Virus genome (UHGV): UHGV-0098804
Source: a virus
Strand: one strand, 5' to 3'
Length of the DNA stretch: 31,623 nucleotides
Within the stretch, counting starts at the first letter, position 1, and every line of letters begins with the position of its first letter. The notes beneath the pieces are model-generated. The model was not told the origin of the DNA. It worked only from the letters and a program-made list of their open reading frames with translations, and did no database searches. Of this stretch, positions 151 through 26,041 are shown piece by piece. The position numbers and the translations under genes are program-made.

Positions 151-3100
151 ATACTTGATCTCCCGGAAGTAGATCAATGATTTCTGTATCGTGATTAACA
201 GTGCGTTTTTGTTGTATGGCTGTTGCGATATCAGCCACTTGAGAAGCTTTTTTAAATCCAAAAGATTTACCGGTTAAGCCGGATATCTTTTCAGTAAGAG
301 CCTGATCCATTCCTTTCGCTTTTTCGGAAAGCGAAGATATAGAACCAAACGAAGTAGCCAACGCAAAATCCTTTACCAGGTCCAGACTTGTTCCAGCAAG
401 GCTGGTAGCCGCGCCGCCAAATAAATTACTTGCACCACTGATTCCGCTTTCATTTATTGCGATTAACCGCTCAAGCAAACTCGATGGAGAGCCGGTATTA
501 ACATCAGCGTTCTCTGGATTAATCGGTTGTGGTTGGTTACCTGTTTTTTGTGGCTTTTTGACTGCCTGGGCATGTTGTGCAACCTCAATTGGCTGTTGTG
601 TTGCTGTCGGAACGGCATTCAAAACTGGTTGAGCTGGAGATTTTCCATTAGCATATTTTACCTTGCGACCAACACTATATTGCGAATCGCGGGCAATTAG
701 CTGACCACCATTTTCTTTCTGAATTTTATTAATCCGCGCCAATGTTTCGTCAGAGAATTGTCCCTCCCATCGACCAGTGTTTGTGTTAAATGCTCCAAGT
801 GCGTTCTTAATGAACTCATTATTAACTGCCGGATTTCCGCCTTCTTTCGTCGCAATTGCACGAACTAATTGCGTCATAACCTCTGGTTTGCTGACATCTA
901 TTTTTTCATTAGGCGATACACCAAGATATTTACTGACGTTATCAATATATTGGTTAGTATTGTTCTCATTTGGCGGTGCCCATTTTGAAATGATGCTGGA
1001 TACCGTCTGTAACTTCTGATATCCCGCTGCGGCACTGGTGCCGTTGTAATAGCTGGAAACCTGGTTTGCCAGTGCCCTGATCCCTTCTTCAGGTGTGTTA
1101 AATCGCGCAAAACGTTGTTCACCTTTTGCATTTGGCGATTCCAGCGTCGCCCCTTCCTGGTTGGCAAAAACAAGATTGCCGAGATTATTATTTCGGTAAT
1201 TGCGGTTTTTAGCGTTGCTGCCGCCAATATTCAGATCCGCTGCAATGGTGTTGTTGGCAGGTGAACTAAATTCAGTTGGAGAAGTATACCCGTGCTCACC
1301 AACTCCATCCTCGCCATTACGCCCACCTTGTAATTGTTCACCTAGAGAATGAATCGCATCGACAGTTTTTTGGGTGCCGTCTTCAACAGCTTTTTTTACT
1401 TGTTTCGTGTTTTCGTCAGTGGATAAAAATGTATCCTTAAGGCTACCAAAAACAGATTTGGTGACATCTACCGCGCCGTTAACACCACGAGCAATATCTC
1501 CGGTATCAAAATTCTGAAGTTTTTCACCTGCTCTTTCAAATCCTAGCGCAGAAATTCCTTTCCCTATCAAGTTCGTTGCGCCCGACACCAAGCCCCCCAT
1601 ATCGAGCACATTAGCTGTTGCGTAAGCCGTTTTTTGCTGTTCGGATACAGCATCATCGTCACTTAATCCAAAGGCTGCCTTTTGCGCATCTGTATCAGTG
1701 TAACCATCTATAGCGTCATATCCCGCCATAGCCAGCGATCCGATGATAGGGATAGCTCTTGCAGCTGTAGAAGCAGCTGATTTAACACCTATTTTTGCAG
1801 CACTTTTGAGGGCTACGGATTCGGTTTTTTTCTTTGCAACAGTTTCACCTGTTTTAACTGTGGCCTCTTCGGCAACAACACCTGCTGGCTTAACTGCCTT
1901 TGCTGTGTTTTTTGTTTCTTTAGCAATACCCTTAGATGCGTCGCTTGTGGTGCTGATGTCTTTGGCTTTACTAACCTTTGTTTTAACAGTCTTTGCAGCT
2001 CCGGCACCAGCTCCAGCAGCAGCGGTTCCGGCAGCGGCTTTTTCACCAACAGAAAGGGCTTTTTTCCCCAGATTGCGACCTTTCCTTTTCGGTTTGTTCC
2101 GTTTATTTTTACCAGCCTGATCGCCAATATTGATTTTATTTCTTCTGCTTGCTCGATTTCTCCAGAGATCACTTAAGCCGAACTTATTCCCAGAAGATAC
2201 TGATTTGCGTAGCTTAACTACTTCGTCGGAGACATTTTCCAGACCATCAATTATTTTGTTGTCATTGGTCTGAAGAATTTTTGTTTGCTCTTCTACTGCT
2301 TGTGCTGATTTTGTCTCAACAGCATTATTAAATGCTGTTGCAGAGGTTGCTTTTTGAGTATTAACCACCGCCGGATAAGTGATAGCTGGAGATGTCGCTT
2401 TCGAAGGTGAAGCCTCACCTTTCCCCTTTTCTACCCATTCTTTAAGAGATTCTGCTTTACCTGTGATCTCTTTAGTAATGTCGTACATGCCGCGAGCAGC
2501 CATCCACAACGGACCACCAGCGCCAACACCTGCGGCATCTGTTAAAGACTCTTCACTGGAAGACTGATTGCCATCTACCCCTATAATGGAGCCTAATTTC
2601 CGGAGGAAGCCTTCTTGTAGTTTGGCGTCGGCCTTATGTGCTTTCTGCCATTCTTTTTTTCTGGCTATATCTTCGTTGTTTTTCTGGGATACAAAGCGTC
2701 CGTTACTATCCCGAAGCGGTCCTTTTTGGCTTTGGGGGGATTGTGGTTCAAGAGGAGCAGAATTAGCGGCTACTGGCACAGAACCTTTCAACTTTTGGGC
2801 TGACTGGCGTGATGACGCAAAATGAACGCGCTCTGATGTGTTGGTTGCAACAATGAGACGTTCTTCTCCGTTGTTGATCTGCGTCCTCCCTTTTTTCATC
2901 GGAAGGCGTTTTATATATGGGTTAGCTTGGGTGTTCTTGGCATCATCAGAGACATAGGGTTCGCTTGCTATGAGTCTACGGGATAGTCTTTGACTTACTT
3001 TACCTTGATTTTCACCAAGTTGAGTTATAGACCCTCTACCAGAGAGAATGGCGTCTTTGATCTCAGCAAGAGCGTTAAGTTCGTTTGTGCTCGCCCCCTG

Positions 3101-4262: not shown

Positions 4263-4356
4263 GAGTATTTTTATAAACCTTTTTCCATTTTTAATCCTTT
4301 TTAGATCCTTTTTAGGCGTCGCTGGAGCCAGTAGTGGCGCGGGCTGTAGAGGAGGC

Positions 4357-4476
4357 TGGTGTAAGATTTGCCCTCAATTAAATACGATCGGTGTAAGATT
4401 TGCCCTCAGAAGGTGTAAGATTTGCCCTCAAAAGGTGTAGTAATTGCCCTCAAAGTGGTGTAAAAATTGCCCTCAC
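4357..4476 (+). repeat. Five direct iterons (19-20 bp, consensus GGTGTAAGATTTGCCCTCA) upstream of and overlapping the repA start region
   Basis: Copies at 4357-4376, 4389-4408, 4411-4430, 4433-4452, 4457-4476 with about 22-bp spacing. Ends in ATTGCCCTCA like F/RepFIB-type iterons as I recall them. Confidence 0.85.
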
Positions 4477-4499
4477 CATTTGAAGGATCACACAGGGTT

Positions 4500-5255
4500 A
4501 TGAACAGAGCGGAATTAACAGCAAAAGCCGTCAGCCTGATTGAGTCAGCGACACCTATTAGTCGTAGTCTGGCACAAGCCAATGAGATCACGGAGGCTGC
4601 TTATCACCTGACTCGCGACCAAAAGCGACTGTTGTTTATTGTGGTGGGAAGACTTCGCTATGCTTCTAAGGATGGCGTTCTTGGTTCAGGTGCCTGTGAG
4701 TTGACGGTCAACGAATATGCAGAGATGTATAATTTGCCCTCTGCTGAAGCCAGCAAGGATATTCGTAAGGCCATTTCAGGGCTTAGCGAGAAGAAAGTTA
4801 CGATATATAACCCTGATGAATCGACCGAATCAGAAGACAGTTATGAGTCTTATCCCTGGATGATTAAGGATGCCTATTCACCACGGCGCGGGACTTACAT
4901 TATTCATCTTAATCCATATCTCATGCCGTTTTTTACTCTGCTTGATAAGAGATTCACAAGGCTGAATTTTACCGAAGTATCTCGCCTTACAAATCCTTAT
5001 TCTATGCGGCTTTATGAGTCCTTATGCCAGTACAGGAAGGATGATGGAAGCGGCTTTGCCATACTTGGCGTCGAATGGATGCGGGAGCGTTATGGGTTAC
5101 CAAAAAGCTATCAGCGGTATGCCGAATTTAAGAGAAGTTTTTTAACGAAGGCTGTAGCAGAGATTGAAAAAAATACAAAAATGAAAATAGTCTTCTCAGA
5201 GGTGACGGAAGGCGGCAAAGTTACCAGGATAAAATTTACCTATCAGCAGTCTTAA
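4500..5255 (+). CDS. repA: Iteron-binding replication initiator RepA (Rep_3-like), about 251 aa
   Basis: Track ORF 4467..5255; preferred start is the ATG at 4500 (MNRAELTAK...) because the first 11 codons fall inside the last iteron. N-terminal LIESA...LTRDQKRLLFIVVGRL resembles the Rep_3 initiator motif (recalled, not searched). Flanked by iterons on both sides. Confidence 0.8.
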   Translation: MNRAELTAKAVSLIESATPISRSLAQANEITEAAYHLTRDQKRLLFIVVGRLRYASKDGVLGSGACELTVNEYAEMYNLPSAEASKDIRKAISGLSEKKVTIYNPDESTESEDSYESYPWMIKDAYSPRRGTYIIHLNPYLMPFFTLLDKRFTRLNFTEVSRLTNPYSMRLYESLCQYRKDDGSGFAILGVEWMRERYGLPKSYQRYAEFKRSFLTKAVAEIEKNTKMKIVFSEVTEGGKVTRIKFTYQQS

Positions 5256-7464: not shown

Positions 7465-8055
7465 CTACACAAAAACAGATGAGATATTGCTACGGTTAAT
7501 AGAGGTGTTTCCGCTGCATTGCAGGGTTACCGTGTTATGAGTGAAATAGCCTTCCGGTGTGCGCGGAGCGTCCAGTTGGTAACTCACGCTTTTGATAACG
7601 ACGTCGGTAAGGGCTATGTTTCTACCTATGTTTAACGTTACCGTCTCCGGGCGGCGACCGAATGGCGCTACATTGTTCAGTTCCGGCGATTCCATCTTCA
7701 GTAATGCTGTAATGGCTGCGTTCACTTCAAGTTGCGCGTTTACTGTCGCCATGAAGTCAATAACCAGATTAAATTCAGGCGGTTGCTGACCTTCCCAAAC
7801 AAGCATTGAGTTAAAGAGGGTCTTTGTTGTTACGCCGGTTGCGGTCTGAAGTGTATCAGCGAGAGAGCCAGCCGCTGCGCTAATACCGCCAAGCAAGCCC
7901 CCGACTGACTGGTTTTCAAATGGTGATTGCCACATTGAAGACAGTTCTGCGGTAGATCCTTCACCGATATAACCGACGACCATATCCTCAGGGGAGAGGA
8001 TATAAACCTTCATCAATGGACTTATTCCATCAGGCATTATCGCGCCGCAAATCAA
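7465..8055 (-). CDS. Hypothetical tail protein (196 aa), TTG start
   Basis: Track ORF; GGGAGG 8 nt upstream of the TTG at 8055. Confidence 0.45.
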   Translation of the reverse strand: MICGAIMPDGISPLMKVYILSPEDMVVGYIGEGSTAELSSMWQSPFENQSVGGLLGGISAAAGSLADTLQTATGVTTKTLFNSMLVWEGQQPPEFNLVIDFMATVNAQLEVNAAITALLKMESPELNNVAPFGRRPETVTLNIGRNIALTDVVIKSVSYQLDAPRTPEGYFTHNTVTLQCSGNTSINRSNISSVFV

Positions 8056-8104
8056 ACGCTATTCCTCCCAGATAGAGGCCACCTTTGCAGGTGGCCTGTG
8101 TCAC

Positions 8105-8836
8105 TTACAAACCGCGTTTTTTGCGAATGCGCATTGATTTTTTGCGGTTGATATTTGCTACGGATGTATGCGCTTTGCGGCGTGCTTTTTTCAGCGCCTG
8201 TTTTTGCAATGATGTCATGCGGCGAGGGCGCGGGCGCTTACGGATAATGGTAACCTTGCCATCACGGACCACTTTTTTACGTACCGCTTCCAGCATTGCG
8301 CTGTCACCACCAGCAACGGTGTAAATGGCAATAGCCGCTTCCATCATGTCGGCGTCGCTTTCGGAAAGCGCGTCATATACACGTTCGGCAGCAGAGTCAT
8401 CTTCATCGTCGATCATCTCGGTCACGTCGTCCTGGTCTGCGCCAAGCGCAACAGCAGCATCTGCAAGGGCTGCAAGAGCATCGTTATAAGCATCGACTTG
8501 TTCATCGGTAAAATCGGTGTCTTCATCGATATCAGCCAGGCCAGCCATAGTGATTGCTAACGCATCAAATGAGTCAGCTTCCGGATCGCCATCTTCAATC
8601 CAGCCTGCAAGCATGGAAGCCGCCAGGCTGCGCATATCTCCTTGTGCGCGAGACTCAACCGCTTCCATCATCGCGGTTTCAATATCTTCTTTTGGCTTTG
8701 TTTGAGTTTTCTGTTCGGCGCTTTCCAGCATGGCTTTATCATCATTTTCCGGCGTAGATTTATCACCGCTTTCAAAGCAGCCAGAACCAAAAATCGCACG
8801 CATAAAAGGATCAGCAGTATAATTTTTCATTTTCAA
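8105..8836 (-). CDS. Acidic protein with strongly basic C-terminal tail (243 aa): scaffold-like or DNA-binding virion protein
   Basis: Track ORF; Asp/Glu-rich body (DDEDDSAAE...) and Lys/Arg-rich C-terminus (RKRPRPRR...RKKRGL); purine-rich SD upstream. Confidence 0.45.
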   Translation of the reverse strand: MKMKNYTADPFMRAIFGSGCFESGDKSTPENDDKAMLESAEQKTQTKPKEDIETAMMEAVESRAQGDMRSLAASMLAGWIEDGDPEADSFDALAITMAGLADIDEDTDFTDEQVDAYNDALAALADAAVALGADQDDVTEMIDDEDDSAAERVYDALSESDADMMEAAIAIYTVAGGDSAMLEAVRKKVVRDGKVTIIRKRPRPRRMTSLQKQALKKARRKAHTSVANINRKKSMRIRKKRGL

Positions 8837-8871
8837 ACCTCTCTCCCCCGCATTTCTGCGGGGGTAATAAA

Positions 8872-10530
8872 TCAGCGCATCAGAATTGGTTTACCGACGA
8901 TTCGGCGAGCTGTACCGGTCGGGCAAACAGACCAGGACACTTCCCACAGATCGATGTCTTTCTGGACAACCTGGACAACATATGGATCTTCGCCCTGAGA
9001 CTTGTCACGGGGAGTAACCAGCGCACCGGATGCAACGTAACGGTCAAGCAATTCAGTCATTGCTTTCATCAGCGTCGCCTGGGTAATGCCATCCGGTTCA
9101 TGTTTAATCGCCAGTGCTACTTCATAGAAATTACGGGCAATAGCATTCATCAGAGACGAAACATGCTGGAATCGCAGGTAGTTGTTTTTACTGAAAGTTG
9201 TTAAAGAGTCGTCGATGTAGACAGAACCATCAGCAGCAACAGAAACTGGGTTAATGCGTGCGACAACGAATGCTTCGCGATCAACCGCACCGATATTTGG
9301 AATTCGGGCAATATTCTGTCGATCAATAATCGCGCGTGATATACCTGCCGGAGCGTAATGCCAGCCGCCAACATCCGATACCAGAGCCACCCCTCTTGCT
9401 TTTGCTACGAATGCATCGCAACTGATGCCGTAAACAACATTCATACCGGTGAAGGTATCTCGGCAGGAGAATGGGAAGTAGTAGCGGCTTGGCTGGTGTG
9501 AGCCACCAAAACTATGGCTTTTAGCTTCTGAAATGGCATTTTCTGGTGTCTGGTTGCCCTTCAGGTCGTAGAACATGTCTACACGAACGTCTTCTGCCAG
9601 ATTTTTGAGCGCGGCTAAGGCGGATGCGTCATAGCAGCCCAGTGACAGTAATGCGGTGTAATTAACCTCCGAGGCTTCGAGAACCTTTAATGCTTCCAGA
9701 TAGTCTTCGGTGTCAATGGTGGACAAATCGCCATCAGTGCCGCCTTCAAAAGCCACATCCTCAAACATGAGTTGAGCAGCAGATGCTTCCGCATTATCTG
9801 CCAGGACGGCACCAATGCGAGTGGACTGGCTTTCAAGCAGTGTCGGAATCCATGCTGGTTGGCCCATGTCGTTAGTGCCTTCTGGATTGAAGGACACCTG
9901 GTGGCTTTCCAGCACCTCAACAGACCCATCGGTTTGTTTTTCTTTCAGCGTCAGCGTAAAGAGTTCACTTTCTTCATCATCGCGAGTTAGTGATAACGTG
10001 CGATTTTGAGATGCATCACCATCTTTGATGAAGAATAATGCCTTCCCTTCGTCTTTAATCTGGGGAGTTTCTTTTGGTGTGAAAGTTACTGATTGTGTCG
10101 TTGCAGTTGAAGCAACACCCACGCTCAATGTGTCACCTGGATTTACTGTGGTTTCAGCAGGTTCCACGGTAAGTGTTTTGTTGGCCTTTGCCGCTTTTGC
10201 TCTGCTCGCGACGGAAACAGAAATTCCCGGCACCTTCATGTCTTTAGCGCAAACACGAACGACATAACCAGAGCCACCTTTTACGGCACGCTCCACGTGG
10301 CGGTATGGTTCAAATGCCGATCCCAGGCGAGGGTGAATAGGTGAACCTAATACGCTTTGATAAGTCGTATCGTCAACTTTCAGCACTTTACCCGGTGCGC
10401 AACGACGCGATATTACAAGCCCAGCAAAGACAGATGCGCCACCGCTGGTATTGGTGAGGGTAGCGTCAGCATTTACCGCCATTACAGCAACGCCAGCTGC
10501 CTGCCCTACCGAAAAACTAATCTTATTCAT
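8872..10530 (-). CDS. Major virion structural protein (552 aa): candidate tail sheath (or capsid)
   Basis: Long track ORF in the structural operon; assignment rests on size and context only, no confident sequence motif. Confidence 0.35.
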   Translation of the reverse strand: MNKISFSVGQAAGVAVMAVNADATLTNTSGGASVFAGLVISRRCAPGKVLKVDDTTYQSVLGSPIHPRLGSAFEPYRHVERAVKGGSGYVVRVCAKDMKVPGISVSVASRAKAAKANKTLTVEPAETTVNPGDTLSVGVASTATTQSVTFTPKETPQIKDEGKALFFIKDGDASQNRTLSLTRDDEESELFTLTLKEKQTDGSVEVLESHQVSFNPEGTNDMGQPAWIPTLLESQSTRIGAVLADNAEASAAQLMFEDVAFEGGTDGDLSTIDTEDYLEALKVLEASEVNYTALLSLGCYDASALAALKNLAEDVRVDMFYDLKGNQTPENAISEAKSHSFGGSHQPSRYYFPFSCRDTFTGMNVVYGISCDAFVAKARGVALVSDVGGWHYAPAGISRAIIDRQNIARIPNIGAVDREAFVVARINPVSVAADGSVYIDDSLTTFSKNNYLRFQHVSSLMNAIARNFYEVALAIKHEPDGITQATLMKAMTELLDRYVASGALVTPRDKSQGEDPYVVQVVQKDIDLWEVSWSVCPTGTARRIVGKPILMR

Positions 10531-14430: not shown

Positions 14431-15234
14431 CTATGGTTCCTTTTTGGTGTTCTTTTGGAGCGCATCGATAACGCCTTGTGGCATGATTAAACTGATTGCC
14501 GGACTCATTACTGCATCATCCAGTAGAGAACCAGTTAACGTGATGGCGACAGCGTTCTCTAAACCTTTGGTTGCCTGAGTGGTTGACGTTTTAATGCGAC
14601 CTGTAAGGGCTACGACACCCTCACTTGCTGAGTTAATTTCGGAGAGTAAAACTTCGGCGGCTGTCACTGCTTCCCGTAAAGCATCAATTTCATCCTGAGT
14701 AATGTCCGGAGCCTGTGTTGCCCCTCCACCAGCCTGTCCACCATCACTATCACCACCAGCACTCCCGGCAGCTTCAATTTTTGCGTTTATGGCGTTCATG
14801 GCGGTATTCAGATCGTCAAGTTTCAGCGCCGCCAATGCGTCCGTTAATGATTGCGGCATGGAAACATTCCCCATCCCCTCTACCAGGGCGAACGCTGGCG
14901 CGGGGATCAGTTCATTACCTTTTGCGTGGCACTCCCAGCCAATCTTCATCTGTAACAACTCTGATGGCGTGGTGTATGGGGAAAGAGAGTCAGCCAGTGA
15001 TGAAGAAGACTTGCTGGCCTCATTGAGCTGTTCGGAAAATCCAAGCAATTGAGTCGTCCAGGCCGACACTGAATCAGGATAGGTTTTATCAGGGTGAACC
15101 ATTTCCTGTATTGCGCTCGCGAGTGACGAGGCTTTTGAAGAAGCCCCCCGGCTTATGGTTATTGATTCCGGTGTGGAGGCACCAGCACCAGACAGAATTT
15201 GGAAGGCTTTAACTTCACCTATTGAATCAAGCAT
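14431..15234 (-). CDS. Hypothetical protein (267 aa) coupled to the PAAR-like gene
   Basis: Track ORF; start overlaps the upstream stop (TAATG). Ala/Ser/Gly-rich; no family recognised. Confidence 0.45.
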   Translation of the reverse strand: MLDSIGEVKAFQILSGAGASTPESITISRGASSKASSLASAIQEMVHPDKTYPDSVSAWTTQLLGFSEQLNEASKSSSSLADSLSPYTTPSELLQMKIGWECHAKGNELIPAPAFALVEGMGNVSMPQSLTDALAALKLDDLNTAMNAINAKIEAAGSAGGDSDGGQAGGGATQAPDITQDEIDALREAVTAAEVLLSEINSASEGVVALTGRIKTSTTQATKGLENAVAITLTGSLLDDAVMSPAISLIMPQGVIDALQKNTKKEP

Positions 15235-15518
15235 TATGCGACCTGAAAAATATCCTCGCCGTTAGCGATAACAGAACCACAAGAAAGCGGATCGCCTACG
15301 CAGACTACTCCCTTTCCACCTATTGAATACCATGCCCGTGTCGATACAGCCGATCCGGGATGTGCACTGTTGCCATCTGTATGGCTGGGAAACATGGCAC
15401 CATCCACAACAACTGGCTTACCGTTGACGGTGAACCAGGGAACGGTTTCAGCTACCAGTCGCGGCGGAAATCCTCCGTGACCGGAACAAAGTGTGTCGCT
15501 GGTGGCTATTGCGCTCAT
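15234..15518 (-). CDS. PAAR-like spike-tip protein (94 aa)
   Basis: AGGAG SD 9 nt upstream. Motifs CSGHGG, VNGKPVVVDGA and GDPLSCGSVIANG resemble PAAR-repeat proteins such as T4 gp5.4 and T6SS PAAR (from memory). Confidence 0.55.
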   Translation of the reverse strand: MSAIATSDTLCSGHGGFPPRLVAETVPWFTVNGKPVVVDGAMFPSHTDGNSAHPGSAVSTRAWYSIGGKGVVCVGDPLSCGSVIANGEDIFQVA

Positions 15519-15611
15519 TCTTCATCTCCTGGTTATTCGCCTATTGTCATCACTTTGTTATTTCGTCACTCAAAGAGAGAGTGAAATCACGGAACATTTA
15601 CAATTCCCGTT

Positions 15612-15644
15612 TTGTTCTCAAATTGTTCTCAAATTGTTCTCGCT
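15612..15644 (+). repeat. parC-like tandem 11-bp repeats (ttgttctcaaa x2.7) upstream of parM; more ttctcaaa copies at about 15677 and 15763
   Basis: Direct repeats seen in sequence; in type II partition loci ParR binds tandem repeats flanking the parM promoter. Confidence 0.5.
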
Positions 15645-15795
15645 TCTATCCAAGTGCCCAGCAGGCGATTAAAGATATTCTCAAAACAACCTCAATTATG
15701 ACTCTTATTTATCTCTAATTATGTGGATTTTCGATGCCTTCTCTTTTAAAATCATGATTTGATTCTCAAATGTGTCTCAGAAGTGGAGCAAGAAG

Positions 15796-16752
15796 ATGCG
15801 CATTTTTATCGATGATGGTTCAACCAATATCAAAATGCTGTGGGAGCACGACGGGGAAACTCGCACTCACATCAGCCCTAACAGCTTTAAGCGCGGATGG
15901 TCAGCAACATTTGGTGCTGGCAAGCCGTTTAACTATGTCATTGACGACGAAAAGTATTCGTATGATTTGATCTCGCCAGATGTTCTGCCGACAAATAACG
16001 TGGAATGGCAATACAGCCCGCTTAACGTTCTTGCTGTGCATCATGCTTTGTTGACCAGTGGTATTGAGCCGCAAGAAGTAGAAATTGTGGTTACACTGCC
16101 ACTGGCAGAGTTTTACGACGACGATGCGCAATACAATCTCGCTAATATTGAGCGCAAAAAAGCCAGCCTGATGCGCCCTGTCACGCTGAATAAAGGCAAT
16201 GTATTCACAATTAAGAAAGTTACGGTACGACCGGAGTCTATTCCGGCAGGAATTGGCCTGTGCGACAATCTGAACCCTGCCCATTCTGTTCTTATCGTCG
16301 ATTTGGGTGGAACTACCCTTGATGTTTCAATGGTCGCCGGGCAAATGACGGCAGTTTCCCGTGTTTTTGGCGATTCGAATCTTGGTGTATCACTGGTCAC
16401 CAGGGAAGTAAGGCAAGCACTTGCCAGAGCCAATACCGAAACGTCAAATTACAATGTCGATCAGCTTATTATTAACCGCCACGATGAAGAATATCTGAAC
16501 GACAATATCAATGATCCATCCGCTATTGGTGATGTGAAAAAGGCTATTAGTACAAGCATTGACCGCCTGCGTACTCGCGTTCTTGATGTAATTAGCGACT
16601 TTAAAGGGTATACGCATGTCATGGTGATCGGCGGTGGCGCGCCGCTGGTGGCTGATGCAATTCGCGAGCACGTTAACATTCGTGATGATCGTTTCTTTGT
16701 GGCAGATGATCCGCAACTTGCTCTTGTTCATGGTCTGAAGGCTATCGGTTAA
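15796..16752 (+). CDS. parM: Actin-like plasmid segregation ATPase ParM/StbA
   Basis: Track ORF 15772..16752; ATG at 15796 with GGAG upstream preferred. MRIFIDDGSTNIKMLW...HISPNSFKRGW closely resembles the R1 ParM N-terminus as I recall it. Confidence 0.85.
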   Translation: MRIFIDDGSTNIKMLWEHDGETRTHISPNSFKRGWSATFGAGKPFNYVIDDEKYSYDLISPDVLPTNNVEWQYSPLNVLAVHHALLTSGIEPQEVEIVVTLPLAEFYDDDAQYNLANIERKKASLMRPVTLNKGNVFTIKKVTVRPESIPAGIGLCDNLNPAHSVLIVDLGGTTLDVSMVAGQMTAVSRVFGDSNLGVSLVTREVRQALARANTETSNYNVDQLIINRHDEEYLNDNINDPSAIGDVKKAISTSIDRLRTRVLDVISDFKGYTHVMVIGGGAPLVADAIREHVNIRDDRFFVADDPQLALVHGLKAIG

Positions 16753-16758
16753 CGAGGT

Positions 16759-17103
16759 GTGTCCATGCCCCAGGAACGTAAGAAAGTGATGATTTATCTT
16801 CGCCCGGAGGCTTATGCCAATGAAAAAGCCGCGAGTGAAAAGATAAAAAAACATAGCGATATGGCAAGAACTGCGCTTTTAGCTGGCCTTGCGCTGGGAG
16901 AAGTCGATAGTCGGCTGCCGGGATTGCTCGCCTCTCTTCTGACAAAAGAGAGTAACCCAGAGCTGATCCGGGGAATGCTGGCCTCGTTTCTGGAAGTGCC
17001 TGCTGCGACAGAGGAGCGCCCTGCTTCTGTAGCGCCGGGTAAAGAGCAGGTCGTTGTCGAAAGTGTGTCTGCGCGGAACCTGGCTAATTCTCTACCTGAT
17101 TGA
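16759..17103 (+). CDS. parR: ParR/StbB-like centromere-binding adaptor
   Basis: Immediately downstream of parM; ALLAGLAL...LLASLLTKE matches the recalled R1 ParR motif ALTAGLAL...LLCELLTKE. Confidence 0.8.
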   Translation: MSMPQERKKVMIYLRPEAYANEKAASEKIKKHSDMARTALLAGLALGEVDSRLPGLLASLLTKESNPELIRGMLASFLEVPAATEERPASVAPGKEQVVVESVSARNLANSLPD

Positions 17104-17149
17104 CAGCGAATGCGTTCTTGAAAGGCTGCAAATTGCAGCCTTTTTTGTA

Positions 17150-17340
17150 CCGCTTTAACACCAATTTGGTACCAATTTTACACCATATATGAGCCGCTTA
17201 TGTACTGGTGCATAAATGGTGCTGGTTTGGTGCTTTCCAGGTATAAACGTGTACCGGTATATTGGGGATTTGCTGCTATACTGGCAATATTGAGGATTGT
17301 GCCGTTATTGCACCGAAACGGTACCAAAGAGGTACCTTTT
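17150..17340. repeat. Repeat-rich intergenic region (multiple GGTACC / ccaattt / ggtgct motifs): candidate centromere and promoter for the ParA-type system
   Basis: Visible repeated short motifs (ccaatttggtaccaatttt; ggtgctggtttggtgct; acggtaccaaagaggtacc) upstream of the ParA-like gene. Confidence 0.3.
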
Positions 17341-17380
17341 CAGTGTTAAAGTGATGCTAAAACAACACCGAGGAAAGGAC

Positions 17381-18022
17381 ATGATTATCCTGGTAGCAAG
17401 TCAAAAGGGAGGCTGTGGCAAGTCAACCACCAGCGTCAATATTTGTGCCGAGCTGGCCCGAAAAAACAAAGATGTCGTCTTGATTGATGCTGATAAGCAG
17501 GGAACGGCAGCTCGATGGGCGTCAGACCGTAATTCGTCCGAAGTGACACCAGTTATTCATTGCGTCCAGAAGTTTGGAAATATTCGAGAAACTCTGCTCG
17601 ATCTTAACAATCGATATGAATACGTGGTTGTTGATACCGCAGGTCGTGATAGTAAAGAGATGCGCACAGGTATAACGGCGGCGGATATTCTATTGGTTCC
17701 ATTCAGGCCGTCTCAGCCAGATTTGGACACGCTGGCACACTTTGTTGAGGTGTTTGAAGAGGCTTTGGATCTGATGCCTAATCCCAATATTAAGGCGTGC
17801 GCAGTCTTAACTATGGCCCCGGCAAATCCGGTTGTGAATGAAGCAAATGAGGCCAAAGAGTATCTGGCAGAATATCCGCAACTGAAATTGCTGAAAACCA
17901 TTATTCGCGATCGCAAGGTTTACCGCGACTGCATGGCTGAAGGAAAGGGTGTTGTTGAGATGGATAACGGTAAGGCGAAAGGTGAAATTCAGATGTTAGT
18001 TAAGGAGTTGCTAAGTGATTAA
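17381..18022 (+). CDS. parA: ParA/ParF-family partition ATPase (Walker-type, about 213 aa)
   Basis: Track ORF 17297..18022; ATG at 17381 follows AGGAAAGGAC. Deviant Walker A KGGCGKST near the N-terminus. Confidence 0.8.
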   Translation: MIILVASQKGGCGKSTTSVNICAELARKNKDVVLIDADKQGTAARWASDRNSSEVTPVIHCVQKFGNIRETLLDLNNRYEYVVVDTAGRDSKEMRTGITAADILLVPFRPSQPDLDTLAHFVEVFEEALDLMPNPNIKACAVLTMAPANPVVNEANEAKEYLAEYPQLKLLKTIIRDRKVYRDCMAEGKGVVEMDNGKAKGEIQMLVKELLSD

Positions 18023-18299
18023 ACGTCGAGAACCAGCTAAAGCGCCTAAGGCTACTGATCCGGAACTTGAGCGAAGAATTGAAGAGTTCGCCAGCAAAGC
18101 GGATTTAATCCCGGATGAAATTACAAAGGGGAAGGTGCTTGATAAAGATGCGCCGCGCGACTTTAAATCCATACGCGTGAGCTTTAATGAATATGAGTAC
18201 GGGGTGCTCGATGCGTTAGGCAAAAAGCTTAACCGCAGCAAATTGAACCTGATTCGACATGCCATCCTCATGCTTGCTGAGTCAGAGGATGCTAAATGA
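18015..18299 (+). CDS. Small partition partner protein (ParG/ParB-like), GTG start overlapping the parA stop
   Basis: 8-bp overlap with the parA stop (GTGATTAA); small basic protein in the position expected for a type Ib centromere-binding protein. Confidence 0.5.
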   Translation: MIKRREPAKAPKATDPELERRIEEFASKADLIPDEITKGKVLDKDAPRDFKSIRVSFNEYEYGVLDALGKKLNRSKLNLIRHAILMLAESEDAK

Positions 18300-18420
18300 T
18301 ACCGATTTGATGCCTTATTGGCGTCTATCGTGTACCAGTGCAATAATGGTGTCAAAGTGGCGCCATAATGGTGTTAATATACAGCCATATTGATATCAAA
18401 TTGACACTGTATCGGCATCA

Positions 18421-18446
18421 AAAAGCCCCAGGCGGGGCTTTTTCTA
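18421..18446. terminator. Bidirectional rho-independent terminator between the par operon and the dam operon
   Basis: aaaaagcccc aggc ggggcttttt: GC stem flanked by an A-run and a T-run; overlaps the dam stop codon. Confidence 0.6.
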
Positions 18447-19349
18447 TTTGAGCGTTGCAATGATATCGTTAGCGACTATTCGCGTGGATGCTTTGCATGA
18501 CACGGACCGCCTGGCTGGCATGTGGTACAGCTTAAAACCGTTTCTTTCGTACAATTCGCGAATTTTTGGCGCGCCACTGTTTGTTATTACTATCTTTGCA
18601 CCGCGCTGGTGGGCCGCCACCAACAGTGATACAAGCCGTTTTTGTTCATCGAAAAGGAAGCTATTTCCTGAATAGCTGGTAAATCCCTCTGTATCTGGCA
18701 GCGGCTCATACGGCGGATCACAAAAAATCACATCGTCTTCACCAGCCGCCTCGATGACACCAGCAAAGTCACCTGATACAAAGGAAGTGTTTTTGAGTAC
18801 GTCATCAGCCAAAAATGCCTCCATCTCTGCATGTGGGAAGTAGGGCGCTTTGTATTTGCCATACCCCACGTTGAACTCGCCATTTTGGTTGTACCGCGTT
18901 ACGCCATTAAAACAGTGACGATTAAGGTACAAAAATGCGGCAGCATGATGTAGCTGGTCATATTTTCCTCTGTTAAATGCCTCACGCACTTCGAGGTAAG
19001 CGTCAGCGTTGTTGTAATTTTTGAAAAAACTATATGACAGCGTGACGAGCGAATGTCCTTCTCGCTGCAATGTCTGATAGAAGTTAATCAGGTCACCGTT
19101 AATATCATTAAGCAGGTTTTGGCGAAATCCTGCATTCGTAAATACGGAACCGCCACCAACGAATGGTTCTATTAACCGCTTACCGTGTGGTAGATGCTCA
19201 AGCACTGTAGGCAATTCTGAGAATTTACCACCTACCCATTTGAATATCGGACGCTCATATTCATCCGGAGTCCGAATGGTGCGCATATAGCTAATTTCAG
19301 CCATCGTATCCTGTTTTTCTATGGCTATGCTTGCTATAGATTTACTCAT
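18444..19349 (-). CDS. dam: DNA adenine methyltransferase (Dam-like, N6-adenine, DPPY motif)
   Basis: FKWVGGK...EPFVGGGSVF...LYLNR...CDPPY align with E. coli Dam motifs (recalled). Preferred start is the ATG at 19349 (MSKSIA), which overlaps the upstream stop by 8 bp; the track start 19445 would overlap the upstream gene by about 100 bp. Confidence 0.85.
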   Translation of the reverse strand: MSKSIASIAIEKQDTMAEISYMRTIRTPDEYERPIFKWVGGKFSELPTVLEHLPHGKRLIEPFVGGGSVFTNAGFRQNLLNDINGDLINFYQTLQREGHSLVTLSYSFFKNYNNADAYLEVREAFNRGKYDQLHHAAAFLYLNRHCFNGVTRYNQNGEFNVGYGKYKAPYFPHAEMEAFLADDVLKNTSFVSGDFAGVIEAAGEDDVIFCDPPYEPLPDTEGFTSYSGNSFLFDEQKRLVSLLVAAHQRGAKIVITNSGAPKIRELYERNGFKLYHMPARRSVSCKASTRIVANDIIATLK

Positions 19350-20022
19350 AGAGCACCCCCTTATTCGCTTCGAAAACTGCCTTTGCGAATCCATGTGGAG
19401 TAGCACTTCGAAAATTAGCCCTGTCAGGCCCTGGTGGCGCGGCATGGATTCTGTTATCTGGCTTGCCTAATGATTCGTCCATTAGGGCATCAGGCATGAC
19501 AAAGCCCTGGCCGCTCCAGAGGCATGTTTTTTTGGTGTAGTTATCTTCCTGACAATATGCAGTGAAGAAGTAAGGGTGAAAGATGTGATCTGGCTTACGC
19601 CAGAATGTCGATATTTTGCTGACCGGATTTTCAATCATGTACGGACAACCGATCATCTTTGCAATGTCATAACACTGCCAGACAACCTGCATTGCTTTGA
19701 ACTGGAAAACCGGATCTTTATTAGCCTTGTCTGAAAACCAGCGCGCGCCGGAAACAGCCAGGTCAGTACACGGTGGGAACCCGGCCAGAAACACGATGCG
19801 CTGCAAATTCTTACGGAGAAAAGCGTATACTTCATCGCTATCGATGATCGCACTAATACGCGTCAGAACGGCACCTGATTGCATCCGCTCGTCACTGGTC
19901 GATAAGTGCTGTGGATCGACGATAGCGGCATCGACACCGTATTCCAGCCAGGGGGCAACCATTGCCCCCGTAAAATCACAAAGACTCACAACAAGCGGTC
20001 GGTTATTATCGTTCTGCTTCAC
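19342..20022 (-). CDS. Short C5-cytosine-methyltransferase-like protein (about 227 aa)
   Basis: [14 protein letters not shown] resembles C5-MTase motif IV (PCQ) and MIENPV resembles motif VI (ENV); weak motif-I-like LCDFTGA. GTG start at 20022 has GGAGG 10 nt upstream and overlaps the rdgC stop; the track ATG at 20094 would lie 88 bp inside rdgC. Confidence 0.45.
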
Positions 20023-20911
20023 CGCCAATGGCCTCCACCAGCGCGTTAAACAGTGCAGATAATTCGCCCGTAAAGAGCACGAAATCAGCATCAAATCGTT
20101 GTGCTACATCCTCCCGGTCGATATCGTCGTTCTGGTCATAGAGATCATCACAGAATGTCAGGGCTTTGATACTCATATCATCGTTGACTTTGAACGACGC
20201 GCGGTCCATCCAGTTAATTGCAACGGTCGTAGCTACTTTCCCCGCCTCAATGTGAGACATAATCTCGTCGGACTGTAGATCAACTTTGTTGCAGCGAACG
20301 GCACCACCATTATCGAGCAGACCCTTTAATGTGGCGTCTTCACCTGCTGTAAATCCGGCAGGGAAGCCGTTTTTAAACCACTCGGTCATTGTAATTTCCA
20401 GCGGTTCGCGTGGTGTGAATGGAATGACAGGCAGGCTGCCGAGCGATTTTCGCAATAAAGCCAGCTGGTCCTCTGCTTTTTTGGCGCTGCTTGCCTCAAC
20501 GAATACCAGATGGTTGCTGCGGTCGATCAGGATTTTTGCGAGTGATTTTCTCGTGAAAGCACGAGGAAGAAGAGAGTGAAGCACTTCATCCTTCAGCGAA
20601 TCTTTTTCGGTCTTCTTCAGCTTTCTGTCTTGCTCTTCTTCAAGTTTCAGGATTTTTTTCTGTAACTCTTCTTTGAGTACTTGAGAAGGCAGGATTTTTT
20701 CCTCTCGTTTATGCTGCATCAGAAGAAAACCCTGGTATTCATGGGTGAGGTTGTCGCCAAGAATTGGGGTCCAACCAGCTTTAGCCATATCCTGAGAACC
20801 GCATGGGGTAAACACAAACTTGCTAAGGGCTGCATTTACTTCTGCAGTATCCCAGCTAACTTCGCGTGAAAGACGATAGATGAAGATATTTTTGAAAGCG
20901 ACTGATCTCAT
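20006..20911 (-). CDS. rdgC: Recombination-associated protein RdgC homologue
   Basis: Near-colinear similarity to E. coli RdgC as recalled (FKNxxxYRLSRExS, [31 protein letters not shown], [15 protein letters not shown]). Confidence 0.85.
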
Positions 20912-25291: not shown

Positions 25292-25312
25292 TAAAAGTAA
25301 TCAGGATAAGCT

Positions 25313-26041
25313 ATGATGTCAGAAAAAGTTACAGATAATCCGTCTATAAATGAAACAGAACTAAAATCATTTTCTGAAATAATAAAAGATAAAATATTTA
25401 ACAAGGTTTTTGCATATGTTGTCATTTCTTTTCTAATTTTTAACTGGAAGGATATTTTAATTATATTAAAGTCAAAGGACGACATCCTATATACATTATC
25501 TATTGTTTTTGTTGGTGGTAATGTCCCGTTCTTTGATAATTGGATTGTATCCCCGTGGGTTTATCACGTTGTAATCCCATTTGTTTATGGAGTATTTGCA
25601 TCTGTGTTAGCTCCTATTCTCACACTGAAGATATCTAAGCTAACAAGTAAATTATACACTGAAATAAGATATTTGGATGAAGTTGCTGATTATGATAAAA
25701 GAATAGAATTGCAAAGAAAGAAAACAAAGTTAAATCAAGCAACCAATGACGCTAAATATTCAAAACAAATCTTAGATGAAAATGAAAATAAACTTAATGA
25801 CCTAGCTAAGAAACAGCGAGAAATTTGTGGCGCGATAAAACTATTGCATACTGATGTTGGCAGTATTATTGAGCTATATAAAAATAAGGGGGTTAGCATT
25901 GAATCTCCGCAAGATTTATGTGATTTTATAGTCGCTATAAAAAGCACATCATTCTATAATGATGACAAGCATTTTAATAAATTGGTGTCTGATATTTCCA
26001 GTTTGTTTGATAATACTGGAATTGATCTTTCAAAAAAATGA
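25313..26041 (+). CDS. AT-rich accessory gene: multi-pass membrane N-terminus plus C-terminal coiled coil (242 aa), function unknown
   Basis: Track ORF with AGGA SD. Composition is visibly far more AT-rich than the flanks. Hydrophobic segments (FAYVVISFLIFNW; LSIVFVGGNVPFF; VVIPFVYGVFASVLAPILTL) then a charged heptad-like region. Confidence 0.6.
   Translation: MMSEKVTDNPSINETELKSFSEIIKDKIFNKVFAYVVISFLIFNWKDILIILKSKDDILYTLSIVFVGGNVPFFDNWIVSPWVYHVVIPFVYGVFASVLAPILTLKISKLTSKLYTEIRYLDEVADYDKRIELQRKKTKLNQATNDAKYSKQILDENENKLNDLAKKQREICGAIKLLHTDVGSIIELYKNKGVSIESPQDLCDFIVAIKSTSFYNDDKHFNKLVSDISSLFDNTGIDLSKK

Follow-up and report, generated by a model that had tools for sequence, protein, structure and literature searches.

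The locus considered here raises the question of whether two complete partition systems of different class stand side by side on one replicon and, if they do, how such a pairing arose and whether both members are likely to be used. The window, by which we mean the whole stretch of 31,623 nucleotides of viral DNA that was analysed (UHGV-0098804), is on sequence grounds part of a D6-like (P1-related) Escherichia coli phage-plasmid. Synteny and similarity to phage D6 extend around the locus through capsid, upfB, upfC, stbA, stbB, parA, orf61, dmt and hrdC/rdgC, and the parMR DNA matches that of D6 at 88%. Phage genes surround the locus, with an upfC-like PAAR gene on one side and dmt on the other (the flanking genes match PAAR, D12 methylase and RdgC in Pfam). 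The 122 plasmids with matches are non-conjugative and about 76-96 kb in size, and 120 of them are typed non-mobilizable.

A preliminary description of this DNA had proposed two different partition systems side by side, and all the elements that it listed are present at or near the places that it gave. We find two apparently intact partition cassettes of different class, one an actin-type ParM/ParR system and the other a ParA/ribbon-helix-helix (RHH) system, which lie in tandem on the + strand and directly adjacent on one replicon. The concern that the two ATPases might belong to a single family, or that one might be inactive through a degenerate Walker motif, did not materialize, in that ParM and ParA fall into unrelated Pfam families and the ATPase motifs of both are intact. 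We consider it probable that the locus serves as the double partition locus of a D6-like phage-plasmid, built from two autonomous co-directional cassettes with the following features.

15604-17147, + strand: cassette 1, type II, with 11-bp iteron centromere/promoter region (putative), parM, parR and strong terminator
15604-15795, + strand: parC-like candidate centromere and promoter region; 11-bp iterons with TTCTCAAA or TCTC core
15796-16752, + strand: parM (stbA), ATG start, actin-like segregation ATPase, 318 aa (Pfam, R1 ParM structures)
16765-17103, + strand: parR (stbB), predicted centromere-binding adaptor of ParM, 112 aa (Plasmid_stab_B)
17120-17147, + strand: intrinsic terminator closing the parMR operon (stem-loop and U-run)
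17146-18443: cassette 2, type Ib, with 213-aa ParA, overlapping gene for a 94-aa predicted RHH partner, and two repeat arrays
17146-17376: upstream repeat array, like parC1 or parH; about 20 GGTACC-like hexamers in 11-bp phase
17381-18022, + strand: parA, small Walker-type (type Ib) partition ATPase, 213 aa, ParF-like
18015-18299, + strand: ParG-/ParB-like partner gene, 94 aa, GTG start, 8-nt overlap with parA
18296-18419: downstream repeat array, like parC2; about 11 hexamers in 11-bp phase
18420-18443: bidirectional intrinsic terminator, perfect 10-bp inverted repeat AAAAAGCCCC/GGGGCTTTTT

By its genes and repeats, cassette 1 is a type II (ParMRC) system, and we infer the position of its iterons relative to the promoter. 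Three tandem units (15612-15647) are followed by degenerate phased units (15678-15721) and by a pair (15762-15784) just 5' of the parM start codon. The parC-like 11-bp repeats of the preliminary description are borne out by TRF, which reports a period of 11 with 2.7 copies of TTGTTCTCAAA at 100% match (15612-15641, score 60), and by lag-11 autocorrelation, which gives z = 6.2 against shuffles for 15604-15795. Four of the six copies of TTCTCAAA in the whole window fall within this region. A putative -10 element, TAAAAT at 15747-15752, and the parM Shine-Dalgarno sequence GGAG at 15785-15788 complete it. The promoters of both cassettes were placed by eye; a consensus promoter scan returned 6 sites versus 4.7 expected from shuffles and did not call the one assigned to parMR.

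The parM gene begins at ATG 15796 (the ORF finder had chosen GTG 15772). Its product matches StbA_N (1.7e-69) and the ParM C-terminal domain (3.3e-56) in Pfam, and aligns over its full length with R1 ParM structures (E 1e-112, 54.7% identity), with the motifs DDGSTNIK, DLGGTTLD and GGGA conserved and D169 aligned to R1 D170. The parR gene starts 12 nt 3' of parM, and its product matches Plasmid_stab_B (2.5e-11) and PHROG 8671 'partition protein' (5.9e-52), and is 32% identical to ParR of the pB171-type locus (here and below pB171 is represented by the locus of identical layout, L003, on plasmid pE1246_1). In two relatives (L011 and L023) whose ParR is 54% identical, the iteron core TTCTCAAA becomes GTCTCT; the ParM-facing C-terminal NLANSLPD is kept in this allele, and the N-terminal part of the protein and the iterons change. 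The operon closes with a terminator of 11-bp stem, 3-nt loop and U-run (dG -15.7 kcal/mol, z -4.66, with 0/200 shuffles as good), in which AAGGCTGCAAATTGCAGCCTTTTT is conserved in D6, L006 and L007 despite divergent flanks.

The second cassette contains an ATPase gene that had been placed within 300 bp of the ParM/ParR operon, which agrees with the 277-bp gap between parR and parA. By alignment, this ParA is a small type Ib ATPase with an intact deviant Walker A motif. It lacks an N-terminal DNA-binding domain, and among proteins of solved structure it is closest to ParF of TP228 (4dzz; residues 4-211 against 5-202, E 1.5e-17), the Walker A residues KGGCGKST aligning to ParF KGGSGKTT (QKGGCGKST spans residues 8-16). 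It covers positions 1-203 of 203 in the NCBIfam model NF041546 ParA_partition at 162.7 bits, below the 180-bit cut-off. Identity is 43-44% to ParA of the pB171-type and IncI1 par loci and 70% to that of a stand-alone cassette in Chimaeribacter.

The small partner had been described as ParG-like. It is present and is assigned to the RHH fold by profile and structure, but it is not recognizable as ParG by sequence. The assignment takes this route because no direct sequence match was obtained in Pfam, NCBIfam or PDB. A profile search collected 124 small homologues. Among 60 of these scanned against Pfam, 20 weakly match the NikA-like family, which we take to be RHH, 18 match RHH_1, and others match RHH_4/5/7 or the PutA RHH-domain family; the partner profile also aligns with the whole beta-alpha-alpha unit of CopG (E 0.11). 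An AF2 model (pLDDT 87, rising to 93-97 in the C-terminal domain) finds mostly RHH proteins as its best matches in a Foldseek search of the PDB, at target-normalized TM-scores of 0.7-0.8, with ParG (1p94) at rank 2 and 74 of its 76 residues aligned. The E-values behind the RHH assignment are weak (0.1-5), but the hits agree very well with one another, and we therefore predict an RHH protein with a basic N-terminal tail. The tail, MIKRR, precedes a helix (IEEFASKAD), a linker and the predicted C-terminal RHH domain (residues about 50-90). Across the family M1, R5 and F25 are nearly invariant, and R5 of the M-x-K-R-R motif is at least 90% conserved.

The repeat-rich upstream region attributed to the ParA system is evident from its lag-11 signal (z = 6.0 for 17146-17380). 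A 5-bp AT-rich spacer comes after each of its hexamers (GGTRCC / RYACC). Allowing at most one mismatch, GGTRCC has a density of 42/kb in the array versus 9.9/kb elsewhere, and its copies are spaced by 11, 22 and so on. Within the array lies a putative extended -10 promoter, TGCTATACT (17274-17282), and the repeats continue into the ribosome-binding site GAGGA (17370-17374). The TGnTATACT of this promoter is conserved in D6, L006 and L007, and the 11-bp periodicity of the array is kept in 8 relatives (z 3.8-5.7).

A second array, absent from the preliminary description, lies downstream of the operon. Its hexamers (GATACC, GATGCC, TGTACC, GGTGTC, GGCGCC, GATATC and others) reach a motif density of 46/kb, such that both arrays of the ParA cassette are enriched 4-5-fold, and the lag-11 z for 18296-18420 is 5.0 with a lag-22 match fraction of 0.47. 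It is partly an inverted copy of the upstream array, with a 32-nt inverted repeat relative to 17155-17186 at 81% complementarity. The D6-type relatives carry a downstream array of other sequence and the same period, and the Chimaeribacter cassette also has one. When lag-11 periodicity is scanned along all 31.6 kb, the top three peaks are exactly the three non-coding par repeat regions, with the downstream array ranking third. The hexamer arrays are likely to be a type Ib centromere and operator, a candidacy that we draw from their sequence and placement. Beyond them, the terminator at 18420-18443 serves the convergent dam-like methylase gene as well as the parA-partner operon; the dG values for its two strands are -15.8 and -15.6 kcal/mol (z about -3.1).

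How might such a locus work? In cassette 1, ParR dimers would bind the 11-bp TTCTCAAA-type iterons flanking the parMR promoter, both assembling a partition complex and repressing the operon, and the ParR C-terminal tails would capture ParM-ATP filaments that push sister plasmids apart. In cassette 2, the 94-aa RHH protein might bind cooperatively to the hexamer arrays that flank the operon, with a dimer for each helical turn, and because both the promoter and the ribosome-binding site are overlapped by the upstream array, this binding would also autoregulate the operon. The basic N-terminal tail of the partner may stimulate the ATPase of nucleoid-bound ParA, as the conservation of M-x-K-R-R suggests, and a ParA gradient would distribute the plasmid over the nucleoid. 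Given the strong terminator between the operons, the two should be regulated independently. Together, the cassettes could provide redundant or condition-dependent segregation of a plasmid prophage that is about 90 kb in size and low in copy number, for which the unusually stringent low-copy lifestyle raised in the preliminary description is plausible. In the literature searched here, we found no experiments on either cassette of any D6-like element.

It is not guaranteed that both cassettes are active, because StbAB of pINV and parABS2 of SCP1 are dispensable or masked. Both systems of the double loci of Shigella pINV are functional, and still the native plasmid was unaffected when stbAB was deleted (PMC6519299); in SCP1, parABS1 alone matters under laboratory conditions (PMC13245405). 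One cassette might likewise do all the segregating here, with the other being redundant, masked or host- or condition-specific baggage, which we regard as possible but somewhat unlikely. The frameshifted parM of one metagenomic relative (L021) would fit such a state, as would the synonymous divergence of parA and the partner gene, at 3-4 times the dS of parM, and their greater allele shuffling. However, dN/dS is within 0.02-0.14 for each of the four genes across a deep synonymous divergence (dS 0.25 to >1), which shows purifying selection, with 0.035 for parM relative to D6, 0.08 for parR, 0.025 for parA and 0.04-0.14 for the partner gene. The ATPase motifs have survived, and the three repeat regions remain periodic in every relative examined even as their sequence drifts. 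Almost the entire D6-like lineage keeps the order of the four genes. In PLSDB it is kept in 112 plasmids, whose matches span at least 80% of the locus (versus 118 records at 80% identity or more), all four genes are in order in 19 of 19 IMG/VR loci, and the locus is present in 101 of 5,426 complete E. coli genomes, in each case as a single plasmid-borne copy; matching D6-like plasmids also occur in Salmonella and Shigella. If one cassette were truly dispensable, decay or loss would be expected in some of these more than 100 plasmids.

The uneven synonymous divergence and allele shuffling also indicate that the two modules have different histories. Alleles are mosaic, with two relatives (L002 and L022) joining a window-type ParA to a D6-type partner, and the ParA cassette stands alone, with hexamers on both sides, on a 251-kb Chimaeribacter plasmid. 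Perhaps the ParA-RHH cassette and its flanking arrays recombine freely as a self-contained module for incompatibility and segregation that is swapped among D6-like phage-plasmids independently of the conserved ParMR cassette, and the two systems are specialized rather than redundant. We advance this idea tentatively and think it unlikely, although the higher parA and partner dS, the mosaic alleles and the co-variation of ParR and its iterons all fit. If true, the systems might be specialized by host, growth condition, or prophage versus early-infection state, or might offer escape from incompatibility with co-resident R1/pB171-type ParMR or IncF/IncI-type ParA plasmids.

Returning to the double partition locus that we favour, its pairing of systems was initially thought to be uncommon and perhaps a product of cointegrate history, and neither idea fares well. 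Multiple partition systems occur in about 19% of partition-bearing PLSDB plasmids according to a 2026 survey, and the combination of type I RHH and type II is found in 971 PLSDB accessions (PMC13245405). Loci of type II and type Ib next to each other are familiar from pB171 onwards, as cited in PMC6519299; the same four genes are given as the partition module of pYU39_89 (PMC6799933), and the GenBank record of D6 already names StbA, StbB and a possible ParA. The tandem arrangement is thus real and already familiar, and it is no new class of system. We consider it very unlikely that a cointegrate or recent plasmid insertion left the pair behind, with the second system as a passenger from the other parent replicon. 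Gene exchange between phage-plasmids and plasmids does occur, as described in PMC10879196, and close relatives of the ParA cassette reside on ordinary plasmids. Furthermore, ParM is nearer to R1 ParM (54.7%) than to the pB171-type ParM (42%), and the modules were therefore probably acquired separately. In contrast, GC content runs at 0.45-0.51 across both modules and their flanks without a compositional step, the genes adjoining the locus are upfB, upfC and dmt, with no IS element, transposase gene or second replicon among them, and the sole plasmid replicon visible in the window, Rep_3, is 11 kb away. The two-cassette arrangement is no recent event, being ancestral to the D6-like group as a whole.

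It is equally improbable that ParA and the RHH protein are a VirC1/VirC2- or NikA-like DNA-processing pair, or regulators of neighbouring cargo such as glnS: Pfam VirC1 does cover ParA nearly full length (E 1e-13), the partner family has its weak NikA-like matches, and the authors of the pYU39_89 study list a 'cop' copy-number-control gene, taken here as the small gene, among the four partition genes (PMC6799933), but ParA scores only 55.5 bits on VirC1 (cut-off 313) against 162.7 on ParA_partition and has ParF as its best solved relative, nearly all matching plasmids fall into the non-mobilizable type, glnS is missing from the window and from L007 and yet both retain the ParA cassette and downstream array, and about 30 phased hexamers flanking an overlapping operon, in a cassette that also stands alone in Chimaeribacter, form a type Ib centromere pattern.

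The double partition locus matters mainly for annotation and for the plasmid biology of a clinically widespread group of phage-plasmids, given that D6-like elements are present in about 2% of complete E. coli genomes. The orf61-type 'hypothetical' protein could be labelled as a predicted RHH centromere-binding protein, and the hexamer arrays as a likely centromere.

Phage D6 itself (MF356679; Gilcrease & Casjens 2018) provides a close comparison, and its orf58-orf61 are the same genes in the same order and genomic position, with identities of 98% for ParM, 87% for ParR, 93% for ParA and 76% for the partner. D6-like plasmid prophages such as pYU39_89 form the group to which the window belongs, and the architecture of terminator and arrays is the same. 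The parR, parA, partner and repeat alleles differ (dS 0.9 to saturation), and glnS, which lies 3' of orf61 in D6, is absent from the window. The D6 record labels orf60 'possible ParA' and orf61 'hypothetical', and leaves the RHH protein and hexamer arrays unannotated.

Compared with R1 ParMRC, the window has a ParM that is similar over its full length with conserved motifs, and 11-bp direct repeats around the putative promoter. For R1, PMC9426499 describes ten repeats flanking the promoter and a ParR requirement for two 11-bp repeats. The window differs in its TTCTCAAA iteron core and in the number and regularity of its units (about nine, several degenerate), and its ParR matches that of R1 only at family level (Plasmid_stab_B). 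With TP228 ParFGH the window shares an ATPase whose alignment to ParF runs over the full length and keeps Walker A, A' and B, and a partner predicted, like ParG, to combine a flexible basic N-terminal tail with a C-terminal RHH domain. The ParG tail stimulates ParF through an arginine-finger-like motif (Barilla 2007, as cited in PMC9178275). Unlike TP228, the window has hexamer arrays with 11-bp spacing flanking the operon; its ParA shares little sequence identity with ParF, and there is no sequence match to ParG.

Another close precedent is the E. coli virulence plasmid pB171, in which par1 is a type II ParMR system and par2 a type Ib ParAB system (Ebersbach & Gerdes 2001, as cited in PMC6519299 and PMC13245405). 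As in pB171, ParM/ParR are directly adjacent to a small ParA and a partner of roughly 90 aa (identities to the pB171-type locus are 42% for ParM, 32% for ParR and 43% for ParA). The type Ib operon of the window has arrays on both sides, as does par2, which has been used experimentally with centromeres parC1 and parC2 flanking parAB (PMC4270457). In contrast, the host replicon is a phage-plasmid rather than an IncF virulence plasmid, the repeat sequences differ, and hhalign detects no homology of the partner to pB171 ParB or to a Photobacterium partner (probability <1%). The operons of pB171 are divergent and share one common regulatory region (PMC6519299; L003 layout) and a centromere (parC1), whereas those of the window are co-directional and separated by a terminator, each with its own array and repeat motif. 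This naturally insulated tandem pair of type II and type Ib systems offers a contrast to the cross-regulated pB171 loci when asking why a low-copy replicon should keep two segregation machines.

Two different partition systems lie side by side in the window, as the preliminary description had proposed, and this reading is supported in silico. All four genes are present. The first cassette is type II (parM and parR, with upstream iterons), and the second is type Ib (parA and the gene for a 94-aa partner, with two arrays of hexamers). Beyond the original account, the analysis adds a downstream array, the terminators and an assignment of the partner to the RHH proteins. The features of the locus are as follows.

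15612-15647, three tandem 11-bp iterons upstream of parM
15678-15721, four degenerate phased iteron units upstream of parM
15762-15784, two iteron units adjoining the Shine-Dalgarno sequence of parM
15796-16752, parM, ATG preceded by GGAG (Pfam StbA_N, 1.7e-69; ParM C-terminal domain, 3.3e-56)
16765-17103, parR (Pfam Plasmid_stab_B, 2.5e-11)
17120-17144, hairpin followed by a U-run that ends the parMR operon (folding dG -15.7 kcal/mol, z -4.7)
17146-17376, upstream hexamer array of parA, approximately 20 GGTACC-like units in three phase blocks (from an 11-nt row listing)
17381-18022, parA, 213 aa, after a 277-bp spacer following parR
18015-18299, partner gene, 94 aa, its GTG start overlapping the parA stop by 8 nt
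18296-18419, downstream hexamer array, approximately 11 units (GATACC, GATGCC, TGTACC, GGTGTC, GGCGCC, GATATC and others)
18420-18443, bidirectional terminator at the end of the downstream array

Aligned over 318 residues, ParM shares 54.7% identity with R1 ParM and keeps the nucleotide-binding motifs DDGSTNIK, DLGGTTLD and GGGA. Its D169 aligns with D170 of R1 ParM, an essential residue whose role is described in PMC6519299. The ORF finder stretched the parM frame to a GTG at 15772. Upstream of the gene, the 11-mer TTGTTCTCAAA is repeated 2.7 times without mismatch at 15612-15641 (TRF), and the 190 bp preceding parM hold four of the window's six TTCTCAAA octamers. This region resembles R1 parC in its 11-bp repeats; according to PMC9426499 and its reference list, R1 ParR requires two such repeats, and ten of them flank the R1 promoter. 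The hairpin after parR was missed by a consensus terminator scan and confirmed by folding, and it is kept in phage D6 and in the related loci L006 and L007 despite diverged flanks.

A second ParR allele occurs among the relatives. In four loci (L011, L012, L023 and L024; approximately 1520-3080 in each), ParR (121 aa) is only 54% identical to that of the window, although ParM is still 94% identical. The iterons were read in two of the four, L011 and L023, where the core is GTCTCT instead of TTCTCAAA with the 11-bp spacing unchanged, and where the ParR C-terminus, NLANSLPD, is also unchanged. Such covariation is the pattern expected if ParR recognises the iterons through its N-terminal domain and ParM through its C-terminal tail. 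Judging from these sequences, the GTCTCT type is likely to represent a distinct parC/ParR specificity, or a distinct incompatibility type, among the D6-like elements.

For ParA, the closest solved relative is ParF of TP228, to which it aligns end to end (E 1.5e-17), with a deviant Walker A motif (QKGGCGKST) and with A' and B motifs that align with those of ParF. It shares 70% identity with the ParA of a Chimaeribacter plasmid, 52% with that of a Photobacterium plasmid and 43-44% with those encoded by pB171-type and IncI1 par loci. A VirC1/VirC2-like reading of ParA and its partner was rejected because ParA scores only 55.5 bits on the VirC1 model, versus a whole-model match of 162.7 bits, just below the 180-bit cut-off, on NCBIfam ParA_partition.

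The partner has no match in Pfam, NCBIfam or PDB by direct sequence search, and a word-indexed homologue search returned nothing beyond D6-like copies. An exhaustive HMMER profile search gathered 124 small proteins (E up to 0.001), and an alignment of 60 sequences defines a family with an N-terminal M-x-K-R-R, a helix IExFAxxAD, a variable linker and the segment FKxIRVPFNEYEY...GRSKLNxIRxAI. Within this alignment, 20 of 60 members match the Pfam NikA-like family, which we take to be RHH, and 18 match RHH_1; other matches are to RHH_4/5/7 and PutA RHH-domain families, as well as to DUF6290, TraY and TacA1, the last three of which carry no RHH label. CopG aligns with the profile across the whole beta-alpha-alpha unit (E 0.11). 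AlphaFold2 gave a poor model from a shallow alignment of D6-like copies (pLDDT 55), which was discarded for the model built on the 60 sequences (pLDDT 87 overall, 93-97 in the C-terminal domain). Most of the top Foldseek matches to this model in PDB are RHH proteins, namely CopA(SO), ParG, TacA1, PutA, CopG and Arc, with ParG (1p94) in second rank covering 74 of its 76 residues; target-normalised TM-scores are 0.7-0.8, and the E-values are weak (0.4-5) for so small a domain. We conclude that the partner is a predicted RHH centromere-binding protein of ParG-like architecture. Since hhalign found no significant relation between its family and either the pB171-type ParB or the Photobacterium partner, it appears to share architecture with these proteins, and no homology is claimed.

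The repeat regions that the preliminary description had reported for the two cassettes are real. Besides the TTGTTCTCAAA copies, TRF reports a 22-bp repeat at 17143-17185. Identity at a lag of 11 nt is 0.46 in 15604-15795 and 0.42 in 17146-17380 (z versus shuffles 6.2 and 6.0), and a third region 3' of the partner gene, absent from that description, reaches 0.46 in 18296-18420 (z 5.0). When the entire 31.6 kb is scanned with a 120-bp sliding window, the top three lag-11 peaks coincide with these non-coding regions, and the periodicity is kept in all three in eight relatives (z 3.0-6.2) with differing sequences.

Almost every 11-nt row of the upstream parA array carries a near-GGTACC hexamer (for example TGTACC, ACACC, GGTGCT, TGCACC or GGTACC) followed by a 5-bp AT-rich spacer, and its units extend into the parA ribosome-binding site. 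The array encloses a putative extended -10 promoter, TGCTATACT (17274-17282), kept as TGTTATACT in D6, L006 and L007; a consensus promoter scan was uninformative (6 promoter-like sites versus 4.7 expected). Part of the downstream array repeats the upstream one in inverted orientation (32 nt, 81% complementarity). Allowing no more than one mismatch, GGTRCC is present 42-46 times per kb in the arrays versus 9.9 per kb elsewhere, at spacings that are multiples of 11. GGTACC-like hexamers at 11-bp spacing also lie on both sides of a ParA-RHH cassette that stands alone, with no adjacent parMR, on the 251-kb Chimaeribacter arupi plasmid p251_DSM_115072 (locus L027, 2224-3300; ParA 70% and partner 46% identical). 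Predicted sites spaced one per helical turn to either side of an operon in which parA and the partner gene overlap fit the type Ib pattern, and pB171 par2 is also used in experiments with the arrangement parC1-parA-parB-parC2 (PMC4270457).

We infer every DNA-binding, regulatory and stabilisation step of the following mechanism. ParR bound to the iterons would form the type II partition complex and repress parMR, and ParM filaments would push plasmid copies apart. Independently, dimers of the RHH partner would occupy both hexamer arrays and repress the parA promoter lying within the upstream one. The basic N-terminal tail of the partner would activate nucleoid-bound ParA-ATP, by analogy with the activation of ParF by the ParG tail (Barilla 2007, cited in PMC9178275), so that the plasmid would be spaced over the nucleoid via ParA.

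Further features of the window are as follows.

4284-4315, 11-bp TCCTTTTTA repeats preceding the Rep_3 gene
4358-4480, approximately 4-5 copies of the 22-bp iteron GGTGTAAGATTTGCCCTCA preceding the Rep_3 gene (TRF 4390-4475)
4467-5255, Rep_3-family initiator gene (Pfam Rep3_N, 3.4e-29; Rep3_C, 9.8e-16)
15234-15518, PAAR-like protein (Pfam), flanking the par locus
18444-19445, minus strand, D12 adenine methylase (Pfam), flanking the par locus
20006-20911, RdgC (Pfam), flanking the par locus

According to its GenBank annotation, phage D6 has the order major capsid protein (similar to P1 gene 23), upfB, upfC, StbA (orf58), StbB (orf59), 'possible ParA' (orf60), a hypothetical gene (orf61), glnS, dmt, cytosine methylase and hrdC/RdgC. 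The gene order is as in D6, and therefore the window is from a D6-like, P1-related phage-plasmid, with which the PAAR-like, D12 methylase and RdgC genes agree. D6 itself matches the first 1.65 kb of a 2.95-kb query around the par region at 88%, and the same query has matches in 122 plasmids, approximately 76-96 kb long, from Escherichia, Salmonella, Shigella and Klebsiella; 120 of these plasmids are typed as non-mobilizable.

The segment 4284-5255 is the plasmid replicon of the element, lies approximately 11 kb from the par locus and is the only replicon seen within the window. The preliminary description had raised a cointegrate history. This origin has no support and was rejected, given the single replicon, a GC content that is flat across the locus (0.45-0.51), no mobile-element genes flanking it and a par arrangement that is ancestral to the D6-like group.

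Several local observations accompany these features. The glutaminyl-tRNA synthetase gene glnS, which in D6 and many relatives comes next after the partner gene, is absent from the window (18300-18443 versus 7803-9732 in locus L001); the downstream array directly adjoins the terminator and the dam-like methylase gene, and the glnS-less junction also occurs in L007. On the minus strand, the D12 methylase ORF and the 3' part of the ORF upstream of it share approximately 100 nt; this upstream ORF (19342-20094) has no Pfam match and is syntenic with the putative cytosine methylase of D6. The RdgC ORF overlaps this ORF as well, and the start codons of these ORFs are putative. TRF finds a 75-bp tandem repeat (1.9 copies, 98% match) at 1-139, cut by the window edge. 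Autocorrelation peaks at lags 7, 10, 12 and 19 in 25300-25700, at the start of ORF 25313-26041 (no Pfam match), and this region may be repeat-rich or of low complexity.

All four genes are under purifying constraint as judged by dN/dS against D6, L006 and L007: 0.035-0.05 for parM, 0.08 for parR, 0.025-0.05 for parA and 0.10-0.14 for the partner, at synonymous divergences from 0.25 to saturation. In PLSDB, coverage of the four-gene query reaches 80% or more in 112 plasmids, versus 118 records at an identity of at least 80%. Among 5,426 complete E. coli genomes, 101 carry a single copy of the locus, in every case on a plasmid. A search with the partner protein led to 19 IMG/VR contigs, all of which have the four genes in the same order. 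One of these, L021 (approximately 1773-2730), has a frameshift in parM after approximately residue 175 with parR, parA and the partner intact, which reflects either misassembly or a natural parM pseudogene.

At synonymous sites parM is far less diverged than parR, parA and the partner gene. At the nucleotide level, plasmid pEHP91H1-2 (locus L002) matches the window at 100% in parM and parR, at 94.8% in parA and at only 73.8% in the partner (5882-6803 of L002 versus 17381-18299), a drop that therefore places a breakpoint near the 3' end of parA. In another relative, L022, a window-type ParA is paired with a D6-type partner. These mosaic alleles, together with the unequal synonymous divergence, indicate that modules recombine within the D6-like lineage.

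The preliminary description had called dual partition systems uncommon, a view that does not hold: among partition-bearing PLSDB plasmids, approximately 19% carry two or more systems, and type I RHH and type II are combined in 971 accessions (PMC13245405), with pINV and R27 as further characterised examples (PMC13245405, PMC6519299). GenBank already annotates all four genes in D6, and PMC6799933 groups those of D6-like elements into a partition module, 'cop, parA, stbB and parM'; we found no experimental work on these four genes in the literature searched. The locus is a D6-type tandem variant of the familiar type II and type Ib pairing.

The closest system is the double par locus of pB171, where the same two classes also lie next to each other and the NTPases and ParR are homologous to those of the window. 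PMC6519299 describes divergent pB171 operons with one common regulatory region and cross-talk, and this agrees with the layout of L003, the locus of the IncFIA/FIB plasmid pE1246_1 that we call pB171-type from its divergent layout alone. In contrast, the operons in the window are co-directional, with a terminator between them and unrelated repeat motifs, and the divergent arrangement around a common region that defines pB171 is absent. ParM is 54.7% identical to R1 ParM versus 42% to the pB171-type protein. This closer relation to R1 suggests that the pairing was probably assembled independently rather than inherited from a pB171-like locus.
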